Source of the DNA: Enterobacteria phage RB18
Sequence record: NC_054906.1
DNA: 64,000 nt
Reading direction: 5' to 3' (one strand)
Part shown: positions 12,764-18,238 of the stretch, piece after piece
How the letters are laid out: each line of letters starts with the position of its first letter
Position numbering within the stretch: position 1 is the stretch's first letter
The notes under the pieces: model-generated
Seen by the model: the letters and a program-made list of their open reading frames with translations, nothing else
What the model was told of the DNA's origin: nothing
Database searches by the model: none
Made by a program: the position numbers and the translations under genes

Positions 12764-13006
12764 TTATTCCTTAATTCCTAGTACTTGTTTAAAAGTCTCG
12801 TCGTAATCAAGACTTTGGCCCGTTTGTTCTTTATGTTTGTATATAATATCACTTACTTCTGATAGCATATTTTTATATGAACGAGTTAAAGCAGATTTAA
12901 GCACGCTGTATCTATCAGGAAATTTACCGTGTTCATTATAATAAGCTATTGCTAATTCACGGACTGCCTTTTCAGCAGTCTCCATATATTCTTTACGCTT
13001 TGTCAT
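12764..13006 (-). CDS. Hypothetical protein (start taken at internal ATG)
   Basis: 80 aa, [30 protein letters not shown]...; the longer track ORF would overlap its neighbour by about 170 nt. Confidence 0.45.
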
Positions 13007-13289
13007 TTTCTTCTCGGTCAAATCGGTGTTTACAATGGCGACATTTATAACGAAGATTATTAGTCTGCCAATGGACCAATTGCACCTGTTCAGTTCCACA
13101 TTCAGGGCAATTAGGAACGTTTTTAGAAGCCCTTTCGCGACGTTTAACCATAGCCATAATGGCATCCCATGCTGGAGGTTTAAAATCTAAATCGTCAGTA
13201 ACTAGCAGTCCTTTATCAAACCCAACGCATGGAGTCCATTCAGGAAAATCTGAAGCTTCAGCAATATCTTCTAATAAACGCTTTTTCAT
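12993..13289 (-). CDS. Zinc-ribbon protein
   Basis: 98 aa with CPECG...CRHCKH. Confidence 0.5.
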
Positions 13290-14212
13290 TTCAGTACCTC
13301 AATAGCATCACGTAAACCATTTGCTTTGGCGGTTAAAGCCTTAATAACTTTAGTATGCTCTTCAATCTGTTTTTCAACTTCAATCAAACGGGCACTGAGA
13401 TATTCGCGTTCTTCTTTCATAGTATCATTCCCATGATTGGGCTTTGGCGTAGGTTTAAATTTATTAGGGTCCTTTAACTTAATAACAACTTTAGTTTCAA
13501 ACAGTGAAAGACCATAATTCGTATTATCATCAAAGGATTCAACTACGTCCATTTTAGACAATAACGTACGAAGATTATAAGTCAAAGAACGAATCGTTTT
13601 ATTATGTTTATTAGCTTCACATGGTTTCATATATGGAAGATTTTTATATATTTCATGCGGAGCACAAACAATAATTGACAATTCAAATGGTCCATTCTGT
13701 GATGATGGAATGAATTTAGCCGTAACCCAATCTTTTACATTTACATTAATAGTACGATCATCGCCATGACAAAACAGTCTACGAGAATGCTTAAAAAGCA
13801 TATTCACATTATTATTAAATTCGTGTGAAAACTCACTGGCAAATTTTTCTTTACTATTTTTAGAAAACCATTCTTCTAAATAAGTTCTTTTCACGTCGTT
13901 AATAATATTAAATGTAACAACACTAGCATTTGATACATTAGTCTCAATGTAGCTTGGATACATAAATTTTTTAACATTATTAACAGCTATCACAGAAGAT
14001 AGTAATCGGGAACGTTTGAACCACTCGAGCAAAGAACCAAGAGAATGTGAATACGCATTTTGTGTATCTTTACAAATATGGTTTTCCCATCCAATATAGT
14101 CTAAAAAATCACGAAGAATATTATTGATTACTGCTCTGTGTCCGATCTGATAATTACGGTGTTTAGTAATAAGACTGTCAAAATAATCAATATAATGTTT
14201 ACGAGTTTTCAT
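13286..14212 (-). CDS. Paralogue family member A: globular N-domain, proline linker, C-terminal coiled coil
   Basis: 308 aa; MKTRKHYIDY... N-terminus, KPTPKPNHG linker, heptad-like C-terminus [42 protein letters not shown]. Confidence 0.55.
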   Translation of the reverse strand: MKTRKHYIDYFDSLITKHRNYQIGHRAVINNILRDFLDYIGWENHICKDTQNAYSHSLGSLLEWFKRSRLLSSVIAVNNVKKFMYPSYIETNVSNASVVTFNIINDVKRTYLEEWFSKNSKEKFASEFSHEFNNNVNMLFKHSRRLFCHGDDRTINVNVKDWVTAKFIPSSQNGPFELSIIVCAPHEIYKNLPYMKPCEANKHNKTIRSLTYNLRTLLSKMDVVESFDDNTNYGLSLFETKVVIKLKDPNKFKPTPKPNHGNDTMKEEREYLSARLIEVEKQIEEHTKVIKALTAKANGLRDAIEVLK

Positions 14213-14264
14213 GTTCTTCTCACTTGGTTAATGATTTATACTCCGAGCCATCCTTGGCTTTAAA

Positions 14265-15266
14265 TTACTTAATTAACTGTAAAGCTTGTTCCAAACGATC
14301 AAGACGATTAACAGATTCTTCCCAAATCCTTTTAGCCTGCTCATATTCTTTCTGCGCTTTATTAGAAATTTCTAGAACTTCTTTATAAGCTTTTTCTAGT
14401 GCAATAACTTCTGGACGAATTTCTACAGGTTCAGGCGAATCATCAAGACATTCCATTAGTTCCTCAAGGGTAGTTTCTTCTTTAGGAGTATTCACAATTT
14501 CATCACATTTTTGTTGGTAAATTTCTTTACTAGTAAGTGAATAAGTACATTTCACTTCACGAAGACTAACTACAATTTTATATCCTTCCCAACCGCATAT
14601 ATTCTTAAAAGGATATGTATGAATATTTTCTACTGTTTCCATACAAAGTAATGCGGTCTCTAATTGACGAGTTATAGTGCTAGCAATTGAGAAAAATTTA
14701 TTAATGTTCTTTTGGTTAGTTTCTGGTGTAAAAAATCCATAATTCACAAAAATAGCTACTTTATTTTTATCAAGCTCATATTCTTTTATGATAATCATAT
14801 CAGAAGCCAAAGGATGAATTTGACGATAATCGCCATAGCATAATTTAGAAGCTGATTTTAAAATTTGCTTTTTGAAAAGTCTGAAATTACTAATCCAACG
14901 ACGAGTAAAAATATTCTCAGGGTCTTCTTTATTATTAAGATGATAAGAATTAACATCACCGAACCAATTATATCCTACTACATCTTTAGTTCGTTTAATT
15001 TCTTTCCCAAAATTACCAAGAATATCCCGATTTACCAAATATGAAAGAAGACGAGACTCTTTAAAAGTTTTCTTGATATTATCTTTATCTACACGGCTAG
15101 AAATTTTACGAATTTCATGAATAAATTTAGCAGAAGAAACAATACCTGCATCAACACTATTGAGCCATTGATTGATAATAGAAAGAACGCTATTTTGGCC
15201 AAACATCGGTATAGCTTTATCATCAATAACGCTATTGAATGATTTGATATATTCGTTACGAGTCAT
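14265..15266 (-). CDS. Paralogue family member B
   Basis: 333 aa from ATG 15266 (RBS GAGGAG); MTRNEYIKSF..., SRLLSYL and LFKKQILKSASKL motifs shared with A and C; C-terminal coiled coil. Confidence 0.55.
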   Translation of the reverse strand: MTRNEYIKSFNSVIDDKAIPMFGQNSVLSIINQWLNSVDAGIVSSAKFIHEIRKISSRVDKDNIKKTFKESRLLSYLVNRDILGNFGKEIKRTKDVVGYNWFGDVNSYHLNNKEDPENIFTRRWISNFRLFKKQILKSASKLCYGDYRQIHPLASDMIIIKEYELDKNKVAIFVNYGFFTPETNQKNINKFFSIASTITRQLETALLCMETVENIHTYPFKNICGWEGYKIVVSLREVKCTYSLTSKEIYQQKCDEIVNTPKEETTLEELMECLDDSPEPVEIRPEVIALEKAYKEVLEISNKAQKEYEQAKRIWEESVNRLDRLEQALQLIK

Positions 15267-15323
15267 AATAATCTCCTCAGTAGAAAGTAAGAACATTATA
15301 CCACATCCTTGTGGCAAAGTAAA

Positions 15324-16343
15324 CTAGTTCAGTGCATTTAGTGCATTGTTCAATTTAGAACGTTGCTTCGTGAGATTTTTTACTTTTTCTTGAGCTTTTT
15401 CTAGCATCTTTTCAGCTTCTAACACTTCATTAGTTGCTTTAACGAGTTCATCATCTACTGCCTTGATAGACTTCTCAATCGCATCCGCGTGCCATTTTTC
15501 AACAGGTTTAAGACTCGGATTTTCAACAGGAAGAAAATTCACTTTATTGAATTTCCATGCATCATTATTACCTGAACTATACATCCAAAATTTAGGATCG
15601 TTTGATGAGTAATTAGATAAATTTAAGTTATCTTGCACTTCCTGCTTTTTCTCTTGTACAACTTCATCCTTTCTCAAAAAATCGTATTTAAATGAAACGA
15701 CCATATCAAGTTCATACGTTGTTGTGTCTAATTTAAATCGTTCGAAATGCTGTGAAATCTTAGAATGAACTGCGGCAACAACATCCATATACTTAAATGC
15801 TTCTGTCAACTGTGATTTAAGGCATTCACAAATTGAAAGAGAATTTTTTGTATTAGGTTTAAAGCTAATTCGTGCAGTTCTATTATTTTCTTTTACTGGT
15901 CTTACTTCCATCTGAAGAGTATAACCATCAAATTTCAGATTCTTTAAGTTAATATCAGAACCTTTTAATCGACTAGCCGTCGACAAAATTTGCTTTAATT
16001 GTTTACGGAATAGAGCAATAAATCTCCATTCAATACGATAATGATTTGGATTGAAAAATCCAGATGATAAATCGACCTTACTCTGACCAACACCTTGAAC
16101 AAATAGAGGATTTTTATAATCAATAGTTTTACAGAAATCGGTGAGCTGCTCACGAGCAGTCATTTGTGTAATATACCCCGCTTTACTAAAATGACGTAAC
16201 CATTCACTGCTATTCATATATTTAAAGTGAATATCACGATTAACTTTATCAGGGTCTAAATTATTTTGACACAAAAATGTCATAACATCACGAGTATAGC
16301 TGGCATTACGAACCATATCTTCAATTTGAGAACGAGTTTTCAT
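15324..16343 (-). CDS. Paralogue family member C
   Basis: 339 aa; MKTRSQIEDM..., LFRKQLKQILSTASRLKG; C-terminal coiled coil. Confidence 0.55.
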   Translation of the reverse strand: MKTRSQIEDMVRNASYTRDVMTFLCQNNLDPDKVNRDIHFKYMNSSEWLRHFSKAGYITQMTAREQLTDFCKTIDYKNPLFVQGVGQSKVDLSSGFFNPNHYRIEWRFIALFRKQLKQILSTASRLKGSDINLKNLKFDGYTLQMEVRPVKENNRTARISFKPNTKNSLSICECLKSQLTEAFKYMDVVAAVHSKISQHFERFKLDTTTYELDMVVSFKYDFLRKDEVVQEKKQEVQDNLNLSNYSSNDPKFWMYSSGNNDAWKFNKVNFLPVENPSLKPVEKWHADAIEKSIKAVDDELVKATNEVLEAEKMLEKAQEKVKNLTKQRSKLNNALNALN

Positions 16344-16351
16344 GGTGTTCC

Positions 16352-17254
16352 TTAAGATTTAAGTAAATCAACAATTTTAATTAATTTTTCACGTTCAGAT
16401 TTAGCTTTACTACTCAGTCCAGATAGTCTGAAAATTTCATCGTCATATTGTTGAATAGAAATATTCAGCTCTTCAATTTGCTTATTAAAATAATCAATTT
16501 GTTCAGAATGTTTTTCGTTACTACGAACTGGTACAGGTTTTGTAGGCAATTTAGTTGAACTGGATTCATCCGGGCGATAAATTAAAATACAACTTGAACC
16601 AATAGGGCATTTAGCACCAGATGAATATTCTAACGTTCCAGCTTCTTTTAAAACTTCAAAAGCTAAACAGAGATGATGCCCCATATTAACATAATCTGTA
16701 GAGCGAGCTCTGATATAATAATCATCGCCGCGAATACTAAATTTAAAGCATTTAAGGTCTTCTGTATTATTGGTCTTAAAAATCATTTGTTTATCTAGAC
16801 CTTTAGCTAATCGAGCGCCTAATGCTAATAATCGTCGTTGATTTTCCCACAAATCCGCAATCATTTGATCGAATGATAATTTCGGCATTAGTCGACCATA
16901 AAGGTCATATCCTTTATTATAATTGCGAAGGATTTCACTCGCATTAATACGAGACAACGCTCCAATTTTATTAAGGGCTTTCATGATGCGATTAGATAAA
17001 CCCATTCCAGACCCGTTTGTTCGTTGTAAATGTTTATCTAATCCAAACCCAATATCAACTTTAAATTTATCTAAAATTTCAGCATGAACATCTCTGTCAA
17101 TAACATTCAAATCCAAAGTTGGGTTAAATCTATGAAAAAATTTATCTGGCTCTCCACGACGAAGTACAGTCCATTCATTCAATTTTTTATTAACTAAAGA
17201 TTTAATTACTGCATTGACATTATTAATTACTACTGACATATTTTCCTCACTCAA
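16352..17254 (-). CDS. Paralogue family member D (more divergent)
   Basis: 300 aa; WENQRRLLALGARLAKG motif, proline linker KLPTKPVPV, C-terminal coiled coil. Confidence 0.5.
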   Translation of the reverse strand: MSEENMSVVINNVNAVIKSLVNKKLNEWTVLRRGEPDKFFHRFNPTLDLNVIDRDVHAEILDKFKVDIGFGLDKHLQRTNGSGMGLSNRIMKALNKIGALSRINASEILRNYNKGYDLYGRLMPKLSFDQMIADLWENQRRLLALGARLAKGLDKQMIFKTNNTEDLKCFKFSIRGDDYYIRARSTDYVNMGHHLCLAFEVLKEAGTLEYSSGAKCPIGSSCILIYRPDESSSTKLPTKPVPVRSNEKHSEQIDYFNKQIEELNISIQQYDDEIFRLSGLSSKAKSEREKLIKIVDLLKS

Positions 17255-17710: not shown

Positions 17711-18238
17711 TTATGCGAGTACCGTCTTTAACCGTTCTTCAAACTTCCGAAGAGTATTTTGGCGTTCAGCTCTTTGCTTTTTGTAAGTTTCAATACGCTC
17801 TGAAATGAGAGTGTATCGTTCATTTACTGATTCTTTCATAAAATCAGGAATTTCACGAGAAGCTTTAATCTCGTCAAATTTATCAATAACAGCTTGCTCT
17901 TCAGCAATTAAGTTATCATACATCAAAATATCTTTCTTGATGAACTCAATATCTTCTTGAGTTACACGAGATAATTTAGATGCTTTATCCTTTTTGTACT
18001 GTTCGTTAGTATCACGAGACCAGTGTAATGTACGATTTTTATTCGTATTCTTGTAAATTTCTACAATACCAATCCCATCGATAATAACGATCCAATTCCA
18101 ACGAGATTTGTAAATTTGTCCTCCGTCAACCGTGATTTCACCTCCGATTGAGATGTCATTAAAGAACTTGCTTTGTGCTTCTGATTTAAATTTACCATCG
18201 TTGTAATTTACCAGGTTGAAAATATCTTTAGCGTTCAT
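17711..18238 (-). CDS. Hypothetical protein
   Basis: 175-aa ORF preceded by an early-type promoter and RBS GGAGGAACAC. Confidence 0.55.
   Translation of the reverse strand: MNAKDIFNLVNYNDGKFKSEAQSKFFNDISIGGEITVDGGQIYKSRWNWIVIIDGIGIVEIYKNTNKNRTLHWSRDTNEQYKKDKASKLSRVTQEDIEFIKKDILMYDNLIAEEQAVIDKFDEIKASREIPDFMKESVNERYTLISERIETYKKQRAERQNTLRKFEERLKTVLA

Follow-up and report, generated by a model that had tools for sequence, protein, structure and literature searches.

The 64,000-nucleotide stretch of Enterobacteria phage RB18 DNA (record NC_054906.1; hereafter the window) carries a block of four consecutive open reading frames (ORFs), all on the minus strand, which match nrdC.3, nrdC.4, nrdC.5 and nrdC.6 of phage T4 one to one, gene by gene, with 93-97% amino acid identity. 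With moderate confidence, we read NrdC.3 to NrdC.6 as anciently diverged paralogs, each of which most likely inhibits a different host immune protein. An anti-defense role is proven for T4 NrdC.5; for NrdC.3, NrdC.4 and NrdC.6 we infer it. All four have a three-part architecture: an N-terminal globular domain of about 230-250 amino acids, a proline linker and an amphipathic C-terminal helix some 45-55 amino acids long. The genes, the phage and the role of NrdC.5 were already known; what is new is the remote paralogy, the shared architecture and a wider fold family in T4-like phages. The four proteins are labeled A to D:

13286..14212, minus strand: A, the NrdC.3 ortholog, 308 amino acids (ORF; 96% identical to T4 NrdC.3; full-length match to phrog_1435)
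14265..15266, minus strand: B, the NrdC.4 ortholog, 333 amino acids from ATG (ORF; match to phrog_1435)
15324..16343, minus strand: C, the NrdC.5 ortholog, 339 amino acids (ORF; match to PF23882; 93% identical to T4 NrdC.5)
16352..17239, minus strand: D, the NrdC.6 ortholog, 295 amino acids from the ATG at 17239 (ORF; match to phrog_2257)

The window comes from a Tequatrovirus (T4-like) genome, and the 4.7 kilobases (kb) around the block are 95-98% identical to hundreds of Tequatrovirus genomes. The functional evidence comes from T4 itself: a deletion mutant failed on E. coli carrying the sirtuin (SIR2) defense Dsr1, and nrdC.5 expressed alone restored growth and plating (Srikant, Guegler and Laub, 2022; PMC9391042). 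According to a 2026 preprint, the sensor domain of Dsr1 recognizes the phage major capsid protein. C is the ortholog and syntenic counterpart of this T4 gene, with the same gene order, the 93% identity given above and a ratio of nonsynonymous to synonymous substitution rates (dN/dS) of 0.16; it matches the NrdC.5 family in Pfam (DUF7235, PF23882) over its full length, with 409.4 bits (gathering score, 30 bits) and residues 1-339 on model positions 1-307. Published work places T4 nrdC.5 among the early genes and shows that T4 tolerates the loss of nrdC.1-6 as a whole; in transposon sequencing, none of nrdC.3 to nrdC.6 proved essential. Two other products of the same gene block are published inhibitors of host defenses, gp49.2 of OLD and NrdC.1 of Septu. 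The four-gene block lies in a dispensable region that holds several published anti-defense genes; an earlier reading of the window from its letters alone (the sequence-only reading) had rightly called the region accessory. That reading had also suggested, as an example, variants that each bind a different host or defense target, which fits the action of NrdC.5 on Dsr1 and is plausible for the other three.

Under the reading we favor, the paralogs would act in the cytoplasm, each inhibiting a different immune protein of the host. Target binding, presumably direct, would fall to the variable N-terminal domain, while the conserved C-terminal helix would either oligomerize the inhibitor or dock it to a common partner. 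A, B and D are not expected to share the target of NrdC.5, because their N-domains have at most about 20% identity with it. A functional analog is DSAD1, which inhibits the SIR2 NADase DSR2 and comes from an SPbeta-type phage; it too is a phage protein that neutralizes a defense-associated sirtuin, although its target senses the tail tube and it belongs to a different phage group. The DSAD1 chains in the PDB gave no sequence match, nor did they appear among the top 60 structural matches. Closer to home, gp49.2 (anti-OLD), NrdC.1 (anti-Septu) and Pin (a Lon inhibitor) are encoded alongside the four, in one run of dispensable genes that all point the same way, but they are small, unrelated and without the domain-linker-helix architecture.

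Paralogy was evident at very different depths for the different members. Pairwise identity nowhere exceeds 24%. BLASTP relates A to B (E 1e-4, 24% identity over 240 colinear residues), is borderline for B-C (0.008) and A-C (0.022), and found nothing when D was compared with A, B and C. Full-length family profiles compared by HHalign gave 98% probability for A-B (E 1e-13), 84% for B-C (E 7.5e-6 over 236 colinear columns) and 79% for A-C (E 1.6e-5). Because coiled coils inflate such scores, the comparison was repeated on the N-terminal domains alone, and the three links persisted (A-B 1e-13, B-C 6.6e-5, A-C 2.6e-4), all far below the reversed-sequence controls (E 0.16-0.77); among these three proteins the similarity is more than compositional, the point on which the sequence-only reading had made its proposal depend. 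A and B also fall end to end in a single PHROG (phrog_1435, 8e-101 and 2e-167, respectively). A and B are certainly homologous, and C is very probably homologous to both. The Klebsiella phage Marfa protein Marfa_080 (315 amino acids, starting MTRNE), whose gene adjoins an nrdC.2 homolog, matches A (2e-5), B (5e-7) and C (2e-8) as a single sequence and looks, from these scores, like an intermediate between them. Its match to C spans the C-terminal half only (the Marfa N-domain alone against C gives E 0.034), and that link may be partly due to the helical tail.

The N-terminal motifs that had been proposed as common to the four are shared unequally. M(K)TR opens A, B and C and is absent from D; SRLLS occurs in A and B only, the aligned position reading KAGYITQM in C and KIGALSRI in D. 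The helix motif is present in all four and in register across the profile-profile alignments (NVNMLFKHSRRLFCHGDD / FRLFKKQILKSASKLCYGD / FRKQLKQILSTASRLKGSD / LWENQRRLLALGARLAKGLD), and in extended profile alignments the SRLLS-type motif and the proline linker are likewise in register in all four. The helix motifs lie as follows:

13757-13810, minus strand: shared helix motif of A (HHalign register with the B motif)
14829..14885, minus strand: shared helix motif of B, FRLFKKQILKSASKLCYGD (HHalign register; helices 119-148 of the B model)
15954-16010, minus strand: shared helix motif of C (HHalign register with the B motif)
16793-16852, minus strand: shared helix motif of D (HHalign register; helices 123-150 of the D model)

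The position of D is the most delicate, since by sequence its N-domain reaches only a marginal score against C (E 0.005, over the shared helix motif) and is not significantly similar to B (0.08) or A (0.21), the latter two values being at or near the controls. D also lacks the MKTR and SRLLS motifs, and the heptad signal of its tail is not significant, so that one might suppose that only A, B and C are homologous and that D, without being related to them, came by convergence to a similar size, linker and helical tail. AlphaFold2 models, made for B and D from each protein's own family alignment (mean predicted local distance difference test score, pLDDT, 81.7 and 78.2, respectively), point the other way. 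The succession of elements is the same in both models. A bundle of some six helices at the N-terminus is followed by a small beta element and by a helix-helix-short-helix unit on which the shared motif sits; then come a beta hairpin, a long helix and another hairpin, which complete the alpha+beta N-domain, and after them a proline linker modeled with low confidence and a long C-terminal helix (single in B, split in two in D). Under the weak HH alignment, secondary structure agrees at 71% of N-domain positions, compared with 43 +/- 9% (maximum 61%) in shifted controls, and the helices begin and end in register through the first ~130 aligned columns; the structure prediction that the sequence-only reading had suggested as a check came out in favor of a common fold for B and D.

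Foldseek searches of BFVD connect the families further. The B model matches an A-family model (E 4e-8) and the JS10 NrdC.6 model of the D family (E 3e-5, probability 1.0), and the B and D models have seven matches in common (E 1e-4 to 1e-8), all uncharacterized proteins of 300-335 amino acids from T4-like phages of Pectobacterium, Enterobacter, Acinetobacter, Klebsiella and Yersinia. Together with the marginal C-D score and the fact that D always adjoins C, these results leave an unrelated, convergent D very unlikely. D is joined to B by structure rather than by sequence, because of the shared order of elements and the common BFVD matches, and on these modeled grounds it is probably homologous to A, B and C.

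A, B and D resemble T4 NrdC.5 in architecture as remote paralogs, yet all three fall below the PF23882 threshold and are placed in other PHROG and Pfam families: the family scores 12.4 bits against A (C-terminal helix only) and has no match in B or D, while homologs of B carry the precomputed family PF26897 and those of D carry PF26899. The linkers and tails that give the four their common outline are these:

13424..13456, minus strand: proline linker of A, KPTPKPNHGND (read from sequence)
14409..14438, minus strand: proline linker of B, SPEPVEIRPE (pLDDT <50 at residues 279-284; P280 and P285 invariant in the family)
15498..15533, minus strand: proline linker of C, LPVENPSLKPVE (read from sequence; aligns to the B linker)
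16514..16549, minus strand: proline linker of D, LPTKPVPVRSNE (pLDDT <50 at residues 227-241; PVPV nearly invariant in the family)
13289..13423, minus strand: C-terminal amphipathic helix of A, residues 264-308 (heptad score 0.82; reached by 0/200 shuffles)
14268..14408, minus strand: C-terminal helix of B, residues 287-333 (single AlphaFold helix 285-332; heptad score 0.68; 2/200 shuffles)
15327..15497, minus strand: C-terminal helix of C, residues 283-339 (heptad score 0.90; reached by 0/200 shuffles)
16355..16513, minus strand: C-terminal helical region of D, residues 243-295 (modeled helices 242-271 and 277-294, with a break at LSGLSS)

A proline-containing linker in each protein, as first described from the letters, is borne out in all four, and the prolines preceding the tail helix are conserved within families B and D. 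The heptad pattern in the C-terminal ~45 residues, claimed for all, stands out from shuffles in A, B and C; in D the score of 0.60 was reached by 39/200 shuffles and is not significant (the measure is a crude a/d-position score set against 200 shuffles, and it peaks in the last ~45 residues). The C-terminal region of D is highly conserved across genera, and conservation is somewhat higher in the tail than in the N-domain throughout the four families.

This conservation, together with the like ending of all four tails (L-x-x-A/I-[IL]-x-x-L-K) and the adjacency and co-conservation of a D-C-(A or B) trio in four T4-like lineages, would also suit a different arrangement, in which the paralogs cooperate, their C-terminal helices forming a hetero-oligomeric coiled coil in one multi-subunit machine rather than in independent inhibitors. 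Similarity between coiled-coil sequences is weak evidence, however, and plasmid-borne nrdC.5 alone rescued the T4 mutant (PMC9391042, where the presence of the other paralogs in the mutant is not stated). Phage vB_EcoM_ACG-C40 retains only D intact, and Marfa has one recognizable member within the locus examined. We therefore regard a joint machine as decidedly unlikely and keep to separate inhibitors that share a tail. As to ACG-C40 itself, a deletion runs from inside nrdC.5 to inside nrdC.3 (L005 5802-6213), leaving a 71-residue N-terminal piece of NrdC.5, a detectable remnant of the last ~69 residues of NrdC.3 and NrdC.6 as the sole intact member.

Two further rearranged proteins were seen among the homologs. 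A 299-amino acid protein found in 3 contigs (P0119) is a natural chimera: its residues 1-129 correspond to C residues 145-271 (91%) and its residues 124-299 to residues 134-308 of a divergent A allele (57%), with the join at NKVN/NVNM, just before the A helix motif, which implies a deletion that took out B entirely, together with the end of C and the beginning of A. NrdC.6 of Shigella phage Sf25 (P0121, 378 amino acids) carries an in-frame tandem duplication of ~83 residues, roughly residues 176-258, that runs from the latter half of the N-domain through the linker into the beginning of the tail.

Gene order speaks to the age of the array. The order is D-C-B-A in Tequatrovirus, D-C-A in a Mosigvirus and D-C-B in nine JS98-like and VR-like contigs. 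Because the D-C-(A or B) order is already present in Mosigvirus, JS98-like and VR-like phages, the array is old and arose before several T4-like genera separated; Tequatrovirus is special only in having both A and B. The proposed superfamily is restricted to T4-like phages (Straboviridae and relatives), and within it the A/B family is a very narrow one, with 9 clusters in a set of 1.84 billion representative proteins.

The sequence-only reading had explained the block differently, as a recent four-fold expansion of about 4 kb under diversifying selection. The four genes are indeed adjacent and co-directional, T4 does amplify anti-defense loci segmentally (PMC9391042 and the gp49.2 study), and the alleles of nrdC.3 are divergent. 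However, copies no more than 24% identical, in an arrangement older than the separation of several genera, do not look like a recent amplification, and the comparison of copy number across related phages that was proposed as a check points to an old array. Nor was positive selection demonstrated: dN/dS is below 1 in all four genes (0.04-0.69 in pairwise comparisons with five relatives, mostly 0.15-0.3). In the flanking genes it generally stays at 0-0.15 and climbs to 0.3-0.4 in pin and nrdC.7, so the four proteins evolve faster than their neighbors without gene-wide positive selection. Finally, otherwise closely related phages carry nrdC.3, along with nrdC.2, as distinct allele classes of ~95%, 61% and 56% identity, and the saturated synonymous divergence (dS) between these classes (~1.1), inside otherwise similar genomes, speaks for allele replacement by recombination, not for positive selection in place. 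Recent amplification under diversifying selection is thus largely refuted and retains hardly any probability, and ancient divergence is the history we adopt.

Side by side, nrdC.2 and nrdC.3 (12993-14212) show 61-77% amino acid identity and a dS of 0.4-1.2 in phages in which the dS of flanking genes is 0.05-0.25, which suggests that the pair is a recombination cassette. Variation within Tequatrovirus is highest at residues ~20-60 (the N-terminal helices) in B, C and D, whereas hardly any is found at residues 261-295 of D or in the final 20 residues of B, where that protein varies least.

Several of these points, taken together with others, weigh against paralogous inhibitors with different targets. 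D is not significantly similar to the other three by sequence, and the heptad pattern of its tail does not stand out from shuffled sequences. Foldseek template modeling (TM) scores between families are low (0.37-0.50), probably because of the flexible linker and tail, and this leaves the fold match dependent on local 3Di similarity. The dN/dS ratio stays below 1 in all four genes, and in one HIDEN-SEQ comparison (condition not identified) insertions in nrdC.3-6 were without significant effect. Lastly, NrdC.5 is the single member with a tested function, and it could act indirectly.

Indirect action is at the center of one further explanation, namely that the four serve host takeover or metabolism, perhaps as enzymes, instead of being dedicated immune inhibitors, and that NrdC.5 overcomes Dsr1 by way of, for example, NAD+ or the trigger. 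Each family has invariant polar residues in its N-domain (for example D104, R148, K190 and E237 in B; N108, D112, R116 and NQRR 133-136 in D). Other phages overcome NAD+-depleting defenses enzymatically (the NARP pathways), and our literature search found no paper giving a mechanism for NrdC.5 or a function for nrdC.3, nrdC.4 or nrdC.6. Yet the invariant residues differ between paralogs, the neighborhood holds several published anti-defense genes, and searches of Pfam, NCBIfam and PDB sequences returned no enzyme or other known domain family for any of the four. An enzymatic or metabolic role is, in our estimation, unlikely, and inhibition of immune proteins remains the better account of the block.

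More tentatively, NrdC.3 to NrdC.6 and the fold-sharing proteins of 300-370 amino acids in T4-like phages may form one large modular family of immune inhibitors, with a different sensor for each paralog; the phages of this possible wider family would have Acinetobacter, Klebsiella, Erwinia, Serratia, Pectobacterium and Yersinia as hosts. Its members would combine a fast-evolving N-terminal recognition domain, a flexible linker and a conserved coiled-coil module, the tail providing a common step, such as oligomerization that matches oligomeric defense proteins or recruitment of a common partner.

Three of these four large genes are without an assigned function in T4, the best-studied phage, and Pfam and PHROGs split the four into three separate families. 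With the link to NrdC.5, some 3 kb of T4 sequence that had no explanation yields three specific anti-defense candidates (NrdC.3, NrdC.4 and NrdC.6), and the link suggests a shared design, a variable head on a conserved helical tail. The fold, moreover, points to relatives in many T4-like phages that serve, or are being considered, as therapeutic agents, and in which genes of this kind affect the range of hosts.

Some details of annotation follow from the same analysis. The block is flanked by the genes for endonuclease VII, Pin and NrdC, and then by those for NrdC.7 to NrdC.11. The lengths first assigned to the ORFs (308, 333, 339 and 300 amino acids) hold for A, B and C; the D frame does extend from a TTG to 17254, giving 300 amino acids, but translation almost certainly begins from the ATG at 17239 (295 amino acids), because a GAGGA Shine-Dalgarno sequence lies upstream and the length agrees with the homologs. 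B likewise starts at an ATG preceded by a GAGGAG Shine-Dalgarno sequence and a promoter-like site, its 350-amino acid TTG form being merely mechanical. That site is as follows:

15295..15323, minus strand: promoter-like site between C and B, TTTACT, 17 nucleotides, TATAAT, with extended -10 (TG) (consensus scan, 10/12 matches)

The total count of promoter-like sites in the region is not above that in shuffles, so this one is only a lead; in the 57-nucleotide C-B gap it overlaps, within 15295-15348, short hairpins called terminator-like on both strands. Just outside the block, NrdC.1 (12764-13165) is a mechanical ORF of 133 amino acids, which T4 and PP01 annotate as 80 amino acids from an internal ATG (12764-13006), and NrdC.8 (17711-18238, 175 amino acids) ends in a long charged helical segment and has no profile similarity to the four families.

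GenBank records often name the products of nrdC.1 to nrdC.11, these four included, “thioredoxin.” A to D have no thioredoxin or glutaredoxin family match in Pfam or NCBIfam, PDB searches found no solved structure for them, and the label was apparently taken over from the prefix of the gene name. Near-identical T4-type proteins (P0025, P0034 and P0117) have also been deposited under Bacillus cereus and Enterococcus faecalis, copies that are most likely explained by assembly contamination.

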